This document shows positions 28,407 through 46,674 of a DNA stretch of 64,000 nt, piece after piece (the first letter of the stretch is position 1; each line of letters begins with the position of its first letter). Made by a program: the position numbers and the translations under genes. Where the stretch lies: NCBI GenBank assembly GCA_934130085.1, contig CAKOXK010000002.1, forward strand, positions 4,613 to 68,612, in the 5' to 3' direction. The notes under the pieces were generated by a model, which was not told where the DNA came from, did not search any database, and was given only the letters and a program-made list of their open reading frames with translations. Source of the stretch: an uncultured Clostridia bacterium. Lineage in GTDB: Bacteria > Bacillota > Clostridia > TANB77 > CAG-508.

Positions 28407-28438
28407 AATATCCTTTCTAAATATATAAAATATCTGAA

Positions 28439-28576
28439 TAATTAATAATATATTGTTTTTTTTTATGCCGCGTAGCGATCAAGCGAAGCGCGAATGTTTC
28501 TTTCTTCTTACAGTTAATTTTGACTAATGAAGAAAGAAACGAACAAGGCATGAAAAAACAATATATTATTAATTAT
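28439..28576. repeat. copy 2 of the ~140-bp palindromic repeat element
   Basis: Outer arms ATAATTAATAATATATTGTTTTTT...GGCATG/CATGCC...; core GCGTAGCGATCAAGCGAAGCGCGAATGTTTCTTTCTTC...GAAGAAAGAAACGAACA. Confidence 0.85.
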
Positions 28577-39425: not shown

Positions 39426-41594
39426 CTAACCAGGCTCAGATATCTCATATTTGCTCATCCAGTAACCTGGTAACTCAACACCTGCAAAAGTAAATGCTTC
39501 AGGTACTTTATATATATGGTTTTCGTCTTCATGATTTGTAACATCCTTTGTTATAAAGTTAATGTCATATCCATTAGTACTTTTATCTATTTTATATTCA
39601 TATCTTGGTATCCACACCCAATATGCAATCTTGCCATTTGCTTTAGTTACAATGTTTGCCCATTTTCTTTGAGCATAATCATACCAATTTTGAGGTGCTG
39701 GTTGTGAAATTGGTATATCACTATGTTCTGTTCCATCATCATCCCAGTAAACATAATATGTGTTTTCTTTATCAAGATTATCTAAATTAACTTGTATTTT
39801 CTTTGATGATACGTTCTTTCTTCCTAACGGTATATTATCTTTCATTACACAAACATCATGATCTTTTGTTGAATCTATTCCAGTTATATTGCATGGCAAA
39901 ACGCCTGTAAATTTAAGATCTCCATCAATATATACTCTGTAGTCTTTTCCCTCTTCTTGGTTGTTTACTGAAACCGTTAGATTATTGTTGCAATCATAGC
40001 CTGTTGCGATTTCTTCTGCAGTATCTTTGGTCTCTGATATTTCATATTTGCTTATCCAATAACCTGATAATTCAACTCCCTTAAACGTAAATGCATCTGG
40101 TACTTTGTATATACTATTCTGACTGTTGCTATTAGTGAAATTTTTTGATACAAGTTCTAGACTTAGCCCTTCTTTTTGTGATGGCTCCATTTTATATCTA
40201 TAACGAGGAATCCATACCCAGAAAGTTACCATATTATTGGTCACAGTTACTATATTAGCATATTGTTTTTTACCATAGTTATACCAATTATCTGGAGCAG
40301 GACCTTTATCAATTCTGTTACCAATTTGCATATTTTCACCGTTCTCATCAAATGTTACATAATATGTGGCTTCTGGAGCCAAATTGCTTAAATCAACTAT
40401 CACCTTTTTTGTTGTAACCTGATTTCGTGCTATTATCTTACCATTTTTGGTTACACATATATCATATTTCTTATTTTCCTTTAGTCCGGTAATATCATGT
40501 GGTAAGCTCCCTTTATAATTTTCTATTCCATCTAGATAAACAGTGTAGTCTCCATTCTCCGTGTCATCACAATTTACAGTTATAAAATTAATATCAGTTC
40601 CAAGAGCTAATTGTGGTGAACCATTTTCGCAAACCTCATATTTGCTCATCCAGTAGCCTGCTAATTCCTGATTTGCAAATGTGAATGCTTCTGGTACTTG
40701 ATAATTTGAAGCAAGGCTTTCTGTTGTTCCATCTTCTTTTTTATATTCATTGGTTGTACTTATAAATCTTGCATCTACAGTTTGATCCGACTTAGTTATG
40801 TATGAATACCTTGGTATCCATACCCAATATGCAACCTGATTTCCTGTTACCGTTACTATATTTGCATACTTTTTCTGACTGCTACTATAATCATACCAAT
40901 CTGCTGGAGTATCTACCCTATCAATTCTGCCTGCTATACTTTGATTTCCGTTCTCATCATACGTTACATAGTATGTAGATGTAGGTTCCATATTTGATAA
41001 ATCTGGGGTTTGCATGAATACATCTCCAACTTTTTTGTAAGTTGTGCTTTCTGGAGTTTTATCACCTATATCTGTTTTTCCTCCATCATCTGAATCTTGT
41101 CCTTTGTTATCATCATCCTTACTGTCATCGCCACCATTTTTATCAACAAAATCTTGCCAGCTGTCATAGCTCCACACTGGAATATTTGCTTCAAAACACC
41201 ATTTAACACGTTTTTTATTGTTTGTATAAAAATAATATGTCTTGTTATTTTGAATGATTACTTCCTTTTCATAGTCGCTTTTTATTTCAGGTATAATCTT
41301 TTTTATTTTATCTTGCCCTACTAATCCAACACTTATTGTAAAATCAGGATTTTCAATTTGCTCCCCAGAAACATACATAGTTGCCTCTTCCATATATTTT
41401 TTCATCTGACTTACAAAAGCTGTTTTCTTGGTTCTTTCCAGTAAACCATTTTCACTAAAAACAGTAGCTATTGCAACGCCTGCAATAATTAGTAAAACTA
41501 TAATTGTAACTACAAGTGCTATTAAAGTTATACCATGGTTTTCCAAGCTGTTATTTTTATGTTTTAATTCAGGCTTTAACTTTTGTTTTTGCAT
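39426..41594 (-). CDS. type IV pilin-like (prepilin-type N-terminus) surface protein with three tandem ~200-aa repeat units; start overlaps the 3' end of the DGR RT gene
   Basis: N-terminus ...ENHGITLIALVVTIIVLLIIAGVAIA. The three repeats each end in GYWMSKYE(V/I) and contain WVWIPRY. The repeats are also visible at the DNA level (about 600-bp period). Confidence 0.6.
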   Translation of the reverse strand: MQKQKLKPELKHKNNSLENHGITLIALVVTIIVLLIIAGVAIATVFSENGLLERTKKTAFVSQMKKYMEEATMYVSGEQIENPDFTISVGLVGQDKIKKIIPEIKSDYEKEVIIQNNKTYYFYTNNKKRVKWCFEANIPVWSYDSWQDFVDKNGGDDSKDDDNKGQDSDDGGKTDIGDKTPESTTYKKVGDVFMQTPDLSNMEPTSTYYVTYDENGNQSIAGRIDRVDTPADWYDYSSSQKKYANIVTVTGNQVAYWVWIPRYSYITKSDQTVDARFISTTNEYKKEDGTTESLASNYQVPEAFTFANQELAGYWMSKYEVCENGSPQLALGTDINFITVNCDDTENGDYTVYLDGIENYKGSLPHDITGLKENKKYDICVTKNGKIIARNQVTTKKVIVDLSNLAPEATYYVTFDENGENMQIGNRIDKGPAPDNWYNYGKKQYANIVTVTNNMVTFWVWIPRYRYKMEPSQKEGLSLELVSKNFTNSNSQNSIYKVPDAFTFKGVELSGYWISKYEISETKDTAEEIATGYDCNNNLTVSVNNQEEGKDYRVYIDGDLKFTGVLPCNITGIDSTKDHDVCVMKDNIPLGRKNVSSKKIQVNLDNLDKENTYYVYWDDDGTEHSDIPISQPAPQNWYDYAQRKWANIVTKANGKIAYWVWIPRYEYKIDKSTNGYDINFITKDVTNHEDENHIYKVPEAFTFAGVELPGYWMSKYEISEPG

Positions 41595-42655
41595 TTTCCC
41601 TCCCCGTCTAATGGTTCTTCCTTATTTTCTCTATATATCCATTCACATTTGTCTATTACATTATCTATCAATTTTCTTGAGCTTGCATGAGAAGCATGAC
41701 CTATCCATGCATTTAAGCTTGCACTAACTTTAGTAATATTAAAATCTTTGTTTTTAAATTTTTGATTCCATTTTTTTATTTTTCTATAAATCTTTTTCTT
41801 ATTGCCTTTTAAAATTTTAATATGATTATCTTTTATTTTATATCCACAAAACTTCACACCTTGAGTATTTTTAAAATAATTAGTTTTTTCATTTAGTTCG
41901 AGTTCTAAGTTTTCTTTTAAATAATGTTCTAACTTATTTTTTACATCTTTGCATTCTTCTTTGTTATTCAATAATAATATAAAGTCATCCATGTACCTTA
42001 TATAGTACTTTACTTTTAACTTTTCCTTTACGTAGTGATCAAGCTGATTTAAATAGATATTTGCAAAAAATTGTGAAGTATAATTGCCTATTGGAATGCC
42101 CTTTTTGCTAGTAGTTCTTTGGTAAATGATATTTTTTGTAAATTTTAATAATTTCTTATCTTTTATATATCTTGATAAAATATTGTATAAAATTGATTTA
42201 TCTATGCTGTAGAAAAATTTTCTTATGTCGCATTTTAAAATGTAATAATCTTTATTTTTGTTATACATCTTTTTCATGTAATTTAATAATTGAATTATTG
42301 CTTTATGCACTCCTCTTCCTTCTATGCAAGCATAAGTATCACTTATAAACTTCGGAAGAAAAATTGGCTTTATAAATTCTTCTACATACCATTGATGCAT
42401 TACTCTATCTCTAAATGGTAGTGCCCAAATTATTCTCTCTTTTGGTTCATAGATTTTAAATTTTCTATAGCTTCCAATTACATATCTATCTTTGTAAATA
42501 TCTAATAGCATACTAGTAATGTTAGTTGCTAAGTTCATTTTGAATAAAACTACTTCTTTGTTTTCATGTTTTTCTTTTGAAGCTCTCTTATATGCTTTTA
42601 ACATTTTATCAAATTTAATCTTTTCTTCAAAAATATTACCTATCCTCTTTGGCAA
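41576..42655 (-). CDS. diversity-generating retroelement reverse transcriptase
   Basis: RT motifs including IPIGNYTSQFFANIYLNQLD (the DGR-specific IGxxxSQ) and RYMDDFILL (YMDD). No maturase or endonuclease domains. Adjacent avd and TR/VR. Confidence 0.88.
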   Translation of the reverse strand: MPKRIGNIFEEKIKFDKMLKAYKRASKEKHENKEVVLFKMNLATNITSMLLDIYKDRYVIGSYRKFKIYEPKERIIWALPFRDRVMHQWYVEEFIKPIFLPKFISDTYACIEGRGVHKAIIQLLNYMKKMYNKNKDYYILKCDIRKFFYSIDKSILYNILSRYIKDKKLLKFTKNIIYQRTTSKKGIPIGNYTSQFFANIYLNQLDHYVKEKLKVKYYIRYMDDFILLLNNKEECKDVKNKLEHYLKENLELELNEKTNYFKNTQGVKFCGYKIKDNHIKILKGNKKKIYRKIKKWNQKFKNKDFNITKVSASLNAWIGHASHASSRKLIDNVIDKCEWIYRENKEEPLDGEGKCKNKS

Positions 42656-42999
42656 CTTTTTATCCAGCCTCCTACCATCTTTCCTATTTCTTCAATTTGT
42701 GCATTCCAGTTCATATAGTTTTTATTTGTTATATATTTATATTCGTATGAAAGTCTAACCATTGTTTTTATTACATAGAGTTCTATATCAATTTCATTCA
42801 AGTATCTTACCTTTCTTTCTATGTCTGCTTCTTTCCAAGCCCAGATTACCTTTCTTAAAATATTATATAGTTCGTTTTTTATATCTGTACATAAATCGAA
42901 CCTTTCACTTTTAGGAAACTTTTGTAATAAGTTTTTTGAATAAAATATTAAATTGTTTATTTTTTCATAAATTATTAATCTATTATCTTTTTTAGGCAT
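42640..42999 (-). CDS. avd: accessory variability determinant (Avd, four-helix-bundle protein)
   Basis: 119 aa, basic and helical; resembles the Avd family. A 16-nt overlap with the RT gene implies translational coupling. Confidence 0.7.
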   Translation of the reverse strand: MPKKDNRLIIYEKINNLIFYSKNLLQKFPKSERFDLCTDIKNELYNILRKVIWAWKEADIERKVRYLNEIDIELYVIKTMVRLSYEYKYITNKNYMNWNAQIEEIGKMVGGWIKSCQRG

Positions 43000-43150
43000 T
43001 TAAAATTTTGAAACATCTCGCTTTCGTTTTTATTACTTGTAATTTGTTTCTTTAATGTTTTACCTGTTAAGGAAGGTGCTATACTTCTTTTGTACTTGTA
43101 CTTTTAGTCGAAAGGTTCCATGAAACCTTCCCCTCTTAAATTTATACAAG

Positions 43151-43290
43151 AGTCCCGAGCCAACACACAACACCGCACGAGACGAATTGTTACTGTTACT
43201 ATTACCATTGTTGTTATTATAGCCAAAGAGCGCATTGTTGCTACGTTTGAATACAGGGTTGCCAGAAGTAACAAAATTAGCGTTGGACGA
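43151..43290 (-). other. DGR template repeat (TR), 140 bp, intergenic between the target gene and avd
   Basis: 128/140 identity to 43473-43612. All 12 mismatches are at TR adenines on the coding (minus) strand. The TR is Asn-codon (AAC/AAT) rich in the target frame. Confidence 0.9.
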
Positions 43291-43468
43291 CAGTATAGTA
43301 CCTATGTTTTTAATTTATATTTTTTGAATATTTTATTAATATTATTTTTTGTTTTTTGTTTGTCTATTTTATGTATTTCAATTTATTCTTTATTATTATT
43401 TGTTTTTTTCATTTGTACTTTCGCAATTTATATTTTTTCGTCAATTGTTTTAAGTTCAAAGGGCAGAC

Positions 43469-44131
43469 TTAAAGTCCCGAGCCAACACACAACACCGCAC
43501 GAGACGAATCGCTACTGCTACTAACACCATTGTCGTTATTATAGCCAAAGAGCGCATTGTAGCTACGTTTGAATACAGGGCCGCCAGAAGTAACAAAACC
43601 AGCGCTGGACGAGCTTTTCCAGTTTTTGGTTTCTAGCGTAGCATCTCCTCTTTTTGCTACCTCTCCTGTATATATATTAACATATCTGCTATCTGCATTT
43701 TTCAATTTTGACATATAATCATTTGATGTATTGTAAATACCTGCTACATATTCGTATGTCCCATCTGCCATTTGAAAAATTCCTGTTGCATTGCCTGTTG
43801 TTGAAGCATCTGACCTACCTGATGGAGCACTTCCATAAGGTGATGCTGCAAGCATTGCTGCTGCTCCCCATTCAGTATTCTTAGCCATGTGTACATCAAC
43901 TCCATTATTGCTTGAATCTAAATAAGTGGTGCTATCTAATTGAGCTTTTTTACCTAGTGTTCCTCCTTCAACTTCCATTTGCCTTATTTTTACAAAGAAA
44001 TCATTTGCTGTTGTATTCTTTAAACTAGTTACCCCAGGTCTTGATTGAACCGCCGCATTTACTTTTCCTGTTAACATGAAAGCAGTTAAAATTCCAACAG
44101 TAAAAACTATTGCTGACTTTTTTATTTTCAT
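43469..44131 (-). CDS. DGR target protein: small secreted variable protein (220 aa, SPase-I-type signal peptide, C-terminal variable region)
   Basis: Signal peptide MKIKKSAIVFTVGILTAFMLTGKVNA; the last ~46 codons are the VR, homologous to the TR through the stop codon. Confidence 0.85.
   Translation of the reverse strand: MKIKKSAIVFTVGILTAFMLTGKVNAAVQSRPGVTSLKNTTANDFFVKIRQMEVEGGTLGKKAQLDSTTYLDSSNNGVDVHMAKNTEWGAAAMLAASPYGSAPSGRSDASTTGNATGIFQMADGTYEYVAGIYNTSNDYMSKLKNADSRYVNIYTGEVAKRGDATLETKNWKSSSSAGFVTSGGPVFKRSYNALFGYNNDNGVSSSSDSSRAVLCVGSGL
43473..43612 (-). other. DGR variable repeat (VR) at the 3' end of the target gene
   Basis: See the TR entry. Substitutions are at AAY codon positions 1 and 2 (for example TR AAT to VR GAT, AAC to AGC/GAC/TAC/GGC). 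Confidence 0.9.
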
Positions 44132-44164: not shown

Positions 44165-44200
44165 ATCATTAAGTTATCCTAAAGTAAGTAACTTAATGAT
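44165..44200. promoter_or_regulatory. perfect 36-bp palindrome (12-bp arms ATCATTAAGTTA/TAACTTAATGAT, 12-nt spacer) 34 bp upstream of the DGR target start; the left member of a 30-bp inverted repeat pair
   Basis: Direct inspection; the partner lies at 44356-44385. Confidence 0.7.
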
Positions 44201-44310
44201 AAAAATAAATTAGCTAAAGTTCACCAAAATGCAGTATTCCGTAAGAATTATTCTAATGTAGTAAGACTTATTTTTAATGTTACATGTATATTACGCAAGT
44301 ACGAAAAAAG

Positions 44311-44339
44311 TTGAAATTTTGCCTATTTTATAGTATTTT
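44311..44339 (+). promoter_or_regulatory. candidate sigma-A promoter (TTGAAA-N17-TATTTT) inside the IR-bracketed segment, currently facing the + strand gene at 44604
   Basis: Hexamer match and spacing only. Confidence 0.3.
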
Positions 44340-44355
44340 ATACATATAGTTAGTT

Positions 44356-44385
44356 ATCATTAAGTTACTTACTTTAGGATAACTT
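44356..44385. repeat. right member of the 30-bp perfect inverted repeat (reverse complement of 44171-44200)
   Basis: ATCATTAAGTTACTTACTTTAGGATAACTT equals the reverse complement of AAGTTATCCTAAAGTAAGTAACTTAATGAT. Confidence 0.8.
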
Positions 44386-44603
44386 TTACCTTTTTTAAAC
44401 AATAAACTGTATTTTCTATTTTTTGTTCTTAAGCACTAAACAATAATATTTAGTGTTTTTATTTTTGTTTTTTCTTTTATCTTTTCCAAACTATTTTTCA
44501 TTTTTACTATATTAATTTTAAGTAACACCATTTGTTTTCATACATACTATATAATGTGAATAATTATTAATTTTTTAATAATAATATAACTATTGGAGGA
44601 ATT

Positions 44604-46408: not shown

Positions 46409-46493
46409 GTTAACAAGAATAAGCCTTAAAGAATATTTCATTTTTCAGTAAATAGAAAAGCTCTATAACTTTCTTCATTATACAAAATATAGA

Positions 46494-46635
46494 AGAAATC
46501 GAAAGATATATTGTTTTTCAATTTTGCGTTAGCGATCAAGCGAAGCGCGAATGTTTCTTTCTTCCTAAAGTTAATCTTGACTAGTGAAGAAAGAAACGAA
46601 CAAAAAATTGAAAAACAATATATCTTTCGATTTCT
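46494..46635. repeat. copy 3 of the ~140-bp palindromic repeat element, between convergent SDR and rplQ genes
   Basis: Perfect 32-bp outer inverted arms AGAAATCGAAAGATATATTGTTTTTCAATTTT / AAAATTGAAAAACAATATATCTTTCGATTTCT; the core is identical to copy 2 except at 2-3 positions. Confidence 0.85.
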
Positions 46636-46674
46636 TTAATTAATTATAATTATTAATAAATTATAATTATACAA

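Follow-up and report, generated by a model that had tools for sequence, protein, structure and literature searches.

The 64-kb stretch of DNA analysed here, referred to below as the window, contains a genuine diversity-generating retroelement (DGR), in which each defining component that was tested is present: a reverse transcriptase (RT), Avd, a template repeat (TR) with its variable repeat (VR), and a coding target. A complete DGR had been proposed for this DNA in a preliminary description, and its identity is now confirmed, because the TR/VR mismatches are adenine-specific (12/12), the RT is bRT-like, Avd scores above its cut-off, the RNA RT-14 lies 3' of TR, and the target has a C-type-lectin (CLec) fold. 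The overall explanation, which we consider very probable, is that of a canonical Avd-type chromosomal DGR together with a proposed inverton switch, a pilin-like partner and a target diversified in trans. The host is an uncultured gut Firmicute with an AT-rich genome of about 25-30% GC. The parts of the element and the adjoining pilin-like gene are arranged as follows.

43469-44131, minus strand: target gene with VR at its 3' end, 220 aa
43473-43612, minus strand: variable repeat VR, 140 nt, forming the final 46 codons of the target gene
43291-43472, minus strand: AT-rich VR-TR spacer
43151-43290, minus strand: template repeat TR, intergenic, 140 nt with 36 A
43009-43152, minus strand: RT-14 RNA (Rfam RF02921), whose first 2 nt are the last 2 nt of TR
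42640-42999, minus strand: avd, 119 aa
41576-42655, minus strand: DGR reverse transcriptase, 359 aa, TTG start
39426-41594, minus strand: pilin-like gene (pil722), 722 aa

Target, TR, avd and RT are all encoded on the minus strand, with the open reading frames as first described. The RT and avd genes overlap by 16 nt at the RT start, and at the RT stop 19 nt are shared with the 722-aa ORF, which separates the RT from the GT-C/PMT_2 gene. On the other side, ytxC is located between the target gene and the SDR gene. The preliminary description was thus right in naming chromosomal neighbours on both flanks, but it omitted the 722-aa ORF on the RT/GT-C side and ytxC on the target/SDR side. Nor did it mention that the segment upstream of the target is invertible, that the 722-aa gene encodes a probable pilin-like partner, that an RT-14 RNA follows TR, or that a second, remote target with a decayed TR exists. 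Its suggestion of a non-phage setting agrees with the gene content of the window, which includes ribosomal, chaperone, FtsK, RadA/DisA and polysaccharide genes, and with the PHROG search, which matched RT and Avd and no other gene in the 64 kb; a purely chromosomal context is therefore supported. This distinguishes the element from the phage-borne DGR of the Bordetella phage BPP-1, as does the gene order: the coordinates bear out the order target-TR-avd-RT proposed earlier, or, once the RNA is counted, target-TR-RNA-avd-RT, in which avd separates the RNA from the RT, as opposed to mtd-avd-TR-brt in BPP-1.

Reverse transcriptase, Avd and the repeat system

Both motifs reported earlier for the RT, IPIGNYTSQ and YMDD, were found in its translation, which also has a Pfam RVT_1 match and scores 381 bits with PHROG 1423. 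The best sequence match in the PDB is 8ub7_A, a 328-residue reverse transcriptase (E 4e-42, 148 bits, full length, residues 1-329), which we take to be the Bordetella bRT from its chain length and entry series; group II RTs reached 69 bits and retron RTs about 60 bits in the same search. An RT of another class (group II intron, retron, Abi or DRT defence RT) beside a coincidental repeat pair would be in line with sub-threshold NCBIfam matches to group II RT/maturase (110.8 bits, cut-off 300), Drt3a and a retron RT. However, all of these matches lie far under their cut-offs, the bRT-like chain leads by about 80 bits over its full length, no maturase or endonuclease domain was detected in the RT and no intron RNA by Rfam, in agreement with the earlier statement that group II domains are lacking, and Avd, an A-specific TR/VR pair and a CLec target are all found alongside. 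This alternative deserves virtually no credence and is already effectively refuted; with its [IVL]GxxxSQ motif the protein is best classed, from its sequence, as a bRT-like RT of the DGR clade. The 119-aa ORF, previously called Avd-like, exceeds the cut-offs of NCBIfam NF033474 DivGenRetAVD (98.8 bits, cut-off 80) and of Pfam bAvd PF22296 (90.8 bits, cut-off 40), and matches phrog_3206, annotated as 'Avd protein of DGR'. The Treponema element has HRDC instead of Avd (PMC5758913).

The intergenic TR and the matching VR at the 3' end of the target gene, as anticipated in the preliminary description, are 140 nt each and 91% identical. The two differ at 12 positions, and read on the coding strand every one of these is an adenine in TR (10 A>G, 2 A>T; P = 1.7e-8, given 36 A in the 140-nt TR), with no difference at a non-adenine position. 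All 12 affect codon position 1 or 2, where 33 of the 36 TR adenines are located in the VR frame. The preliminary description had named two outcomes that would speak against a DGR, an RT grouping with group II intron, retron or Abi RTs and repeat differences away from adenines, and neither applies. With 13 AAY codons and 19 diversifiable codons in total, TR could specify about 4e19 theoretical protein variants. The 35-nt 3' core of the repeat occurs at only two sites in the window, in TR and in VR, with 0 expected by chance, and the 3' stretch of about 33 nt is identical in both, A-free and GC-rich, the sequences diverging directly after GGGACT. The VR-TR spacer contains a single weak promoter-like site (43366->43339). 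In BPP-1, a stem-loop (hairpin/cruciform) is located downstream of VR, whereas no significant hairpin was found 3' of the window VR (z -0.2).

The RT-14 RNA was recognised by Rfam over the full model (positions 1-144) at 63.7 bits, above the gathering score of 48.1, and its minimum free energy is unexceptional (z -1.0). It also follows TR in contigs L002, L095 and the more distant L028, and is absent after the decayed TR of the second locus described below. Located at the position expected for a spacer RNA, it is a candidate for the spacer/priming RNA of the DGR. According to Weinberg et al., the related RT-10 motif lies between TR and brt in BPP-1, and the authors speculate that DGRs are served by other RT motifs too (Weinberg et al., 2017; PMC5737381).

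By analogy with the BPP-1 model, TR would be transcribed together with the adjoining RT-14 RNA, and the RT-Avd complex would reverse-transcribe TR with misincorporation opposite adenines. The resulting cDNA would then take the place of VR in the target gene, homing presumably being directed by the 3' portion of the repeat, which is GC-rich and free of A. In this way, 19 codons, 13 of them AAY, would be rewritten in the C-type-lectin region that makes up the C-terminal binding face of the Sec-secreted, 220-aa target.

Population variation and a second target locus

From population data, the element looks active, either at present or in the recent past. The VRs of independent gut metagenome contigs are distinct, nearly all their differences falling on TR-adenine sites, and they diverge by 17%, as opposed to 0.7-1.5% for flanking sequence. 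Between the window and L002, for example, VR differs at 24 of 140 nt and the remainder of the target gene at 8 of 519 nt. In a set of 12 close protein variants, the mean number of distinct residues is 5.05 at VR codons whose first or second position is A, compared to 1.56 at A-free VR codons and 1.24 in the rest of the protein. For each of four TR alleles, the best-fitting VR is its own, with 0, 0, 2 and 1 non-A mismatches, and in the three further allele pairs 18/18, 13/15 and 21/22 mismatches are at A. Non-A polymorphisms of TR (G36A, T125C and others) recur in the cognate VR, which indirectly points to an information flow from TR to VR.

A fossil DGR, whose parts are still intact but whose diversification has ended and left the TR/VR differences as relics, is improbable. 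It would be compatible with data that consist of consensus assemblies only, and with haplotypes stable enough to recur across samples, since the window shares its VR with L001, and L002 shares both VR and TR with L003. However, all ORFs are intact, at least six VR haplotypes are found on near-identical backbones, and recent non-A mutations of TR have already been copied into the cognate VRs. Real TR decay can be seen in this organism at the second locus, where TR has accumulated 12-15 substitutions and a degraded 3' end.

This second locus (locus 2, the window locus being locus 1) contains an 88% identical paralog of the target with a decayed TR (TR2), on a contig from the same metagenome sample as that of the window, probably from the same genome. 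About 30 nt just upstream of TR are conserved between the two loci; TR2 is followed by a remnant of the 5' end of a pilin-like gene, and no RT-14, avd or RT was found at the locus. In L090, which stems from the sample of the window, the variable repeat of the paralog (VR2) differs from the window TR by 12 substitutions (9 A, 3 non-A) and a 6-nt deletion, and fits the adjacent TR2 worse, with 22 substitutions (15 A, 7 non-A). VR2 of L086 shows 24 substitutions, 5 of them non-A, against a functional TR1 allele and a far worse fit to its own TR2, with 41 substitutions, 18 of them non-A. Because VR2 fits TR1 better and the second locus is devoid of RT-14, avd and RT, the best explanation for the paralogous target is diversification in trans, with the window TR as template.

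The 3-5 non-A mismatches that remain between VR2 and its best-fitting TR, the in-frame 6-nt deletion, and the presence of two paralogs in what is probably one genome could also suggest that VR diversity arises mainly from gene conversion or recombination between paralogous target loci or strains, not from mutagenic retrohoming. Recombination, however, would also produce differences away from TR adenines or outside the first two codon positions, and the locus-1 VRs each match their own TR allele at non-A sites. We regard this explanation as very improbable and mutagenic retrohoming as the preferred one.

The target protein and its pilin-like neighbour

The target protein of 220 aa has a Sec signal peptide and a CLec fold, with the VR-encoded residues in its C-terminal part, and it matches no family in Pfam or NCBIfam. 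Together with the surrounding chromosomal genes, these properties sustain the earlier view of a chromosomal DGR that diversifies a secreted bacterial protein, as opposed to the tail-fibre protein targeted in BPP-1. The variable proteins TaqVP of Thermus aquaticus (5vf4) and TvpA of Treponema denticola (2y3c) are only 14-16% identical to the target, and their solved chains are larger, with 277-381 residues. The window target also differs from them in lying outside Pfam and in having no lipobox.

The 722-aa neighbour pil722 is referred to as pilin-like only, because its score with Pfam N_methyl is below the threshold (11.3 bits, cut-off 21.2) and its N-terminus, reading G-ITLIA, has Ala at +5 and lacks Glu5. 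Five related DGR targets pass the same Pfam model with 25.9-33.5 bits and have the motif GFTLIE. The L039 DGR target matches pil722 at its N-terminus (E 1e-3) and then in repeats (E 5e-16 to 5e-11), and after these parts it matches the variable protein of the window (E 4e-15). In such related DGRs, a single target thus combines a pilin N-terminus, a WYDY...WIPRY repeat domain and a CLec variable domain. Profile comparison revealed no homology between pil722 and the variable protein themselves. Because the same three pieces are fused in related type IV pilin-class DGR targets, a Rosetta-stone inference, the two proteins are probably partners, the variable protein providing the adhesive part of a pilus-like or other surface structure.

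A related arrangement has been described for DGRs of Bacteroides, which diversify the tip adhesins of Type V pili (Macadangdang et al., 2024; bioRxiv 10.1101/2024.11.15.621889). Common to both are a gut commensal host, an often non-phage setting and a CLec variable domain as a pilus-associated adhesive head, a role that is proposed for the window protein. They differ in that the association here is with the type IV pilin class of Firmicutes, as indicated by N_methyl in related targets, and in that the variable domain of the window is a separate secreted protein, unlike the Bacteroides tip adhesins. Inversion or phase variation is mentioned nowhere in that paper (0 occurrences).

The invertible segment upstream of the target gene

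Upstream of the target gene lies a 151-bp segment bounded by inverted repeats (IR), which exists in both orientations in nature. The features of this region are listed below.

44171-44202, no strand: target-proximal arm of the inverted repeat, perfect 32 nt
44203-44353, no strand: invertible segment, 151 bp, in the window in orientation 'A'
44354-44385, no strand: distal arm of the inverted repeat, perfect 32 nt
44319-44346, plus strand: candidate promoter TTGCCT-16-TACATA within the invertible segment, aimed away from the target in the window
44431-44475, plus strand: terminator-like hairpin and T-run, outward from the invertible segment

In L095 and L109, which come from other samples and have the same ytxC-target synteny, the interior aligns with that of the window at 94% identity after flipping and at 37% without. 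Orientation A was found at locus 1 in the window, L001 and L002, and orientation B in L095, L109 and L003, the evidence for the flipped junction of L003 being 11 nt at the contig end. The same element with perfect 32-nt arms is also present upstream of the paralogous target, and since the other neighbour gene differs there, the target is its common denominator. A promoter-like block is conserved between the loci, and the locus-2 versions, TTGCCT-16-TATAAT and TTGCCT-16-TCTAAT, are aimed at the target gene. The proximal arm and the adjacent flank can form a 14-bp hairpin (-18 kcal/mol, z -6.2). The terminator-like hairpin has a stem of 10 bp (-8.1 kcal/mol, z -2.9) with a U-rich tract behind it; it is kept at both loci, while the sequence further out is unrelated in the alignment of the two. 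Taken from sequence, the segment probably carries a promoter, so that expression of the variable protein would phase-vary between ON and OFF; on this promoter-switch reading, the window copy would be OFF.

Alternatively, the IR element may not be a regulatory switch: lineages might be fixed for one orientation or the other, or the element might serve as a structure or terminator that leaves target expression unaffected. In favour of this, no recombinase is listed among the called genes of the 64-kb window (it may be encoded elsewhere in the genome), locus 2 has the same orientation in 10/10 contigs, and the only full-length examples of orientation B at locus 1 (L095, L109) belong to a single lineage. 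The promoter evidence is also weak, as the consensus scan gave no excess over shuffles in this very AT-rich region with weak consensus matches, and the -10 of the window (TACATA) is a poor match. However, the perfect 32-nt arms are maintained at both paralogous loci, the outward terminator is conserved together with the element, and L002 and L003 have opposite junctions despite identical VR and TR. Two further IR-bounded segments of the same organism are also flipped between samples, one at 46493-46636 of the window and one upstream of the locus-2 pilin-like gene (96% flipped versus 34% in the same orientation), which suggests that inversion is active in it. The non-regulatory alternative is accordingly unlikely, though it should be taken seriously, and the promoter switch remains our preferred reading.

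Invertible promoter switches are known from cwpV and flgB of Clostridioides difficile and from the capsule or fimbrial invertons of Bacteroides. The window element resembles them as a short IR-bounded segment upstream of a surface-protein gene that is found in both orientations, and differs in that its promoter and ON/OFF state are inferred and that no recombinase was found in the window. Invertons as a general class are described in two papers (PMC11602134, PMC11892184), and among the papers that our literature search covered, none connects a DGR target with an inverton.

The general type of DGR represented here is already familiar, and what is new is some regulatory detail. Tentatively, and leaning slightly against it, we entertain the further reading of a two-layer contingency locus, in which a DGR-hypermutated adhesin module with its own inverton ON/OFF control would form a detachable head on a type IV pilin-like surface protein, and one set of RT, Avd and TR would serve both the cis copy and the dispersed trans copy, whose own TR has decayed. 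If this two-layer reading is true, the DGR-diversified type IV pilins of related lineages would form a class that has not been described so far.

The DGR cassette in its chromosomal setting

The ORF map agrees exactly with the preliminary description, in which four successive minus-strand parts had been recognised, namely a target gene, an intergenic stretch, avd and a reverse transcriptase (RT) gene. The pair of template repeat (TR) and variable repeat (VR) was recovered by the repeat finder as the single outstanding direct repeat, 140 nt long and 91% identical.

Components of the cassette
43469-44131, minus strand, target ORF, 220 aa (ORF map)
43473-43612, minus strand, VR, the copy within the gene, 140 nt
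43151-43290, minus strand, TR, the intergenic copy, 140 nt
43009-43152, minus strand, RT-14 RNA (RF02921), Rfam 63.7 bits with a gathering score of 48.1
42640-42999, minus strand, avd ORF, 119 aa (ORF map)
41576-42655, minus strand, RT ORF, 359 aa, overlapping the 119-aa ORF by 16 nt

On the coding strand, TR and VR differ at 12 positions, all of them at codon position 1 or 2; the TR has an adenine in 12 of 12 cases, which is replaced in the VR by G (10) or T (2). Differences at non-adenine positions, previously named as evidence against a DGR, are absent. The TR contains 36 adenines in 140 nt, and the probability that 12 random mismatches would all fall on an A is 1.7e-8. The A-free 35-nt 3' core, for which 0 sites are expected by chance, is confined to TR and VR, and no further VR was found in the window. 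Folding of the region 3' of the VR gave no significant BPP-1-like hairpin. With 19 diversifiable codons in the TR, about 4e19 protein variants are possible.

In Pfam, the RT matched only the generic RVT_1 model, and in NCBIfam only group II, Drt and retron models below their thresholds. Against all PDB sequences, the top match was the 328-residue RT of 8ub7-8ube (E 4e-42, 148 bits), which we take from its length to be the Bordetella bRT, as opposed to at most 69 bits for group II RTs and about 60 bits for retron RTs, so that the assignment to the DGR type is upheld. The alignment runs through the GIPIG..TSQ.FAN.Y motif and begins at residue 1, in support of the RT's TTG start. The 119-aa ORF is confirmed as Avd by the NCBIfam DGR Avd model (98.8 bits, curated cut-off 80) and additionally matches Pfam bAvd and the PHROG “Avd protein of DGR”.

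The Rfam scan of the entire window returned one family, RT-14, whose first bases are the final two of the TR and which ends just short of avd. The motifs RT-1 to RT-19 are found near RT genes, RT-10 lies between TR and brt in phage BPP-1, and it has been speculated that the other RT motifs serve other DGRs (Weinberg et al., 2017; PMC5737381). The position of RT-14 described here, adjoining a verified TR, is equivalent to that of RT-10 in BPP-1. An orphan Rfam motif thereby gains a concrete place immediately 3' of a genuine TR, and by analogy this would support a spacer or priming role, as played by the spacer RNA of BPP-1.

The gene context was derived from the Pfam families of the genes called on the matching 125,686-bp contig. 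One flank of the DGR consists of the ribosomal protein cluster, rpoA, L17, an SDR and YtxC, which marks a Firmicute. The other flank carries a pilin-like protein of 722 aa, a PMT_2 glycosyltransferase, FtsK and an RNase J-like metallo-beta-lactamase/beta-CASP/RMMBL nuclease, followed by a RadA-like protein, DisA, HrcA-GrpE-DnaK-DnaJ, LytR proteins and a polysaccharide cluster. Across the window, where the context is solely chromosomal, neither phage nor recombinase genes are among those with a Pfam annotation, and PHROG matches are restricted to RT and Avd, in line with the earlier view that the cassette is not phage-borne. From 38 to 48 kb, which covers the cassette and about 4 kb of either flank, the GC content is 22-40% (mostly 25-31%) without a break at the borders between cassette and flanks, and the window contains no tRNA genes.

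Among species-representative genomes, the nearest RTs reach at most 60% identity and originate from MAGs of uncultured gut Clostridia and Bacilli. The order target-TR-avd-RT, which had been said to occur in other DGRs, was found as VR-TR-avd-RT in about 18 related loci, most of them with A-biased mismatches; the architecture is therefore typical of the lineage and not exceptional. At the locus of the closest species-representative relative (L006, 2067-4606), a single avd is flanked by two RT genes (identity to the query 60% and 56%), an arrangement that might reflect a tandem or rearranged DGR. Another related locus (L034, 8129-9637) has a long tandem direct repeat directly upstream of avd (period about 340 nt, 73-79% identity, more than 1.2 kb), which may represent either a series of TR/VR-like units or a target gene of repetitive sequence. 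Scans of the JGI metagenomes with the TR/VR 3' core and with an arm of the inverted repeat described below each gave zero matches, and the organism seems to be absent from this collection. [quoted passage not shown] The DGR itself belongs to a well-known kind; the additions made here are regulatory and functional context, and are partly inferred.

Sequence variation at two target loci

The same cassette, referred to as locus 1, was retrieved by exact-protein look-up from independent gut metagenome assemblies, Hadza samples included. Between the window and L002, a contig from such other material, the VR differs in 24 of 140 nt, compared with 8 of 519 nt in the remaining target gene and 17 of 2550 nt in the 2.5 kb downstream. 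The TR of L002 shows two non-adenine changes relative to the window TR (G36A and T125C), both of which are also found in the L002 VR. In a matrix of six VRs and six TRs, every locus-1 VR best fits its own TR, with 0, 0, 2 and 1 non-A mismatches, the signature of directional copying from TR to VR. Twelve variants of the target protein, 88-94% identical, differ almost exclusively in the VR: the mean number of distinct residues is 5.05 at codons with an A at TR position 1 or 2, 1.56 at A-free VR codons and 1.24 in the mature protein outside the VR in the same variant set. From these sequence comparisons we conclude that the DGR is active now or was so very recently.

Four related proteins (P0008, P0010, P0007 and P0011) are 88-89% identical to the window target and are encoded at another locus, referred to as locus 2. 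It comprises a pilin-like gene (746-750 aa), an inverton, i.e., invertible DNA bounded by inverted repeats, a second target with VR2, TR2 and rpsF-ssb-rpsR, without avd or RT. Locus 2 is represented by ten contigs outside the window (L086-L090 and L104-L108), one of which, L090, shares its sample of origin with the window's contig. TR1, the TR of locus 1, and TR2 disagree at 12-15 positions, 3' core included, RT-14 is absent at TR2, and a fragment of the 5' end of a pilin-like gene follows TR2, so that locus 2 resembles what is left of a second cassette that has lost avd and RT by deletion. VR2 agrees better with functional TR1 alleles than with its own TR2. VR2 of L090 shows 12 substitutions (3 non-A) against the TR1 allele of the window and 22 (7 non-A) against TR2, together with an in-frame deletion of 6 nt relative to the TR; for VR2 of L086 the values are 24 (5 non-A) and 41 (18 non-A), respectively. 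Trans-diversification of non-adjacent targets is known in non-phage DGRs (Wu et al., 2018), and the second target is, partly by inference, likely to be served in trans by the functional TR1 while its own TR has decayed. The remaining non-A mismatches of VR2 leave room for occasional gene conversion.

Invertible DNA upstream of the target and elsewhere

A perfect inverted repeat lies between the target start (44131) and ytxC (44604).

Arms of the inverted repeat
44171-44202 and 44354-44385, no strand assigned, perfect 32-nt repeat enclosing 151 nt

Two contigs of other samples, L095 and L109, share the ytxC-target-avd synteny; their flanks align with the window, and the interior is 94% identical when flipped, as opposed to 37% unflipped. 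A further contig, L003, starts within the element, and its junction is the flipped one; L003 and L002 have the same VR and TR, but L002 has the window's orientation. Since the arms are shorter than the assembler k-mers (k141 in the contig names), the junctions should be supported by reads. This element recurs, its interior about 77% identical, upstream of the locus-2 target next to a different upstream neighbour gene, which identifies the target gene as the associate of the element. In 10 of 10 locus-2 contigs it has the orientation opposite to that in the window, here called B. A promoter-like block is kept at both loci, TTGCCT-16-TATAAT or TCTAAT at locus 2 and TTGCCT-16-TACATA in the window; it faces the target in orientation B and the opposite way in the window. 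Beyond the distal arm, both loci share an outward hairpin with a U-run (-8.1 kcal/mol, z -2.9), as expected if it insulates the neighbours when the promoter points away. The window copy of the putative switch would accordingly be OFF; generic promoter scanning is uninformative in DNA so AT-rich. A minus-strand promoter-like site (44277->44250) was rejected as the switch promoter, as it shows no conservation at locus 2 in the alignment inspected by eye.

An inverted-repeat search in about 27 more distant DGR loci found none upstream of the target, the sole pair being one of 21 nt between TR and avd in L020; the element seems confined to this species group, unless its counterparts in the others escaped the sensitivity of the search. 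A limited literature search found no publication on an inverton linked to a DGR target. Many of the organism's short-read contigs end exactly at the TR 3' end or at the arms upstream of the target (the Logan unitigs L005, L099, L100, L102 and L103, as well as L003 and L094), which fits an unresolved repeat or heterogeneous orientation in the reads.

The locus-2 pilin-like gene is preceded by a 38-39-nt inverted repeat around about 141 nt (L086, 2923-3141; L089, 2935-3153). The interiors of these two contigs are 96% identical when flipped and 34% unflipped, so that this gene has its own invertible element, the repeats of which are unrelated to those upstream of the target. A further candidate in the window lies between the SDR gene and rplQ (46493-46636), where 68 nt, which include a hairpin GTTTCTTTCTTC...GAAGAAAGAAAC, are bounded by an inverted repeat of 38 nt with 95% complementarity. 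In L095 these 68 nt are reverse-complemented between aligning flanks, which suggests one more invertible segment, perhaps a terminator that can be inverted. With these two additional flipped segments, the inversion system appears to be genome-wide. A perfect 24-nt inverted repeat enclosing 91 nt between the radA-like and GH15 genes (28438-28576) also has an inverton-like geometry.

The pilin-like neighbour and the target family

The gene of the 722-aa protein (39426-41594, minus strand) shares a 19-nt overlap with the RT stop, so that co-transcription is probable. The protein begins with a pilin-like hydrophobic helix (GITLIALVVTIIVL...), lacks Glu5 and remains below the threshold of N_methyl, the Pfam prepilin cleavage/methylation motif. 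A relationship as a paralogue of the target was rejected (hhalign probability 2.5%, not homologous). According to tblastn, its repeat domain occurs beside many related DGRs, either after the RT, directly before the target or inside the target. In L039 (5440-6990), one 516-aa protein serves as the DGR target and combines the canonical prepilin motif GFTLIELL (N_methyl 29.8 bits vs 21.2), one repeat domain (E 5e-16 to 5e-11 vs the three repeats of the window protein) and a domain homologous to the window variable protein (E 4e-15), and the fusion junction corresponds to the end of the 722-aa protein and the start of the mature variable protein. Targets of 516-668 aa with a GFTLIE start and a CLec variable domain at the end are encoded in L039, L009, L013, L016, L028 and L035, whose RTs are 50-55% identical; N_methyl was passed by all five targets scanned (L009, L016, L028, L035 and L039). 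On account of this start and end, they represent DGR-diversified modular type IV pilins. This Rosetta-stone pattern of fused related targets suggests a pilin-like surface structure from which the window variable protein has been split off as the head, and the 722-aa protein is its probable pilin-like partner. Large minor pilins without Glu5 are located at the filament tips of type II secretion systems and type IV pili, and placing the 722-aa protein at a tip as a minor pilin would fit by analogy.

The target, about 195 residues long after processing, has no family in Pfam, NCBIfam or PHROGs, and its profile retrieved 3083 clusters (50% identity) at E<=1e-3; the family is unannotated but large. 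The related proteins P0236 (4516 aa), P0241 (3713 aa) and P0342 (2338 aa) contain 4-8 stretches matching the variable-protein profile, so the stand-alone domain is also a repeated module in very large proteins.

To our knowledge, DGRs are the sole natural targeted protein hypermutation system of prokaryotes, and we know of a role for few of their cellular, non-phage targets. It is the invertible element, the probable pilin-like partner, the probable trans target and the place of RT-14 that lift this locus above a routine DGR. A functional clue comes from the fusions in related DGRs, by which type IV pilin-class proteins of gut Bacilli and Clostridia are tied to the variable domain; the pilin link would carry the concept that DGRs diversify pilus adhesins from the Type V pili of Bacteroides to Gram-positive type IV filaments. 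The locus appears to be a natural case of DNA inversion and retro-mutagenesis acting on one gene, a pairing that bears on how bacteria restrict the cost of expressing a randomised surface protein.
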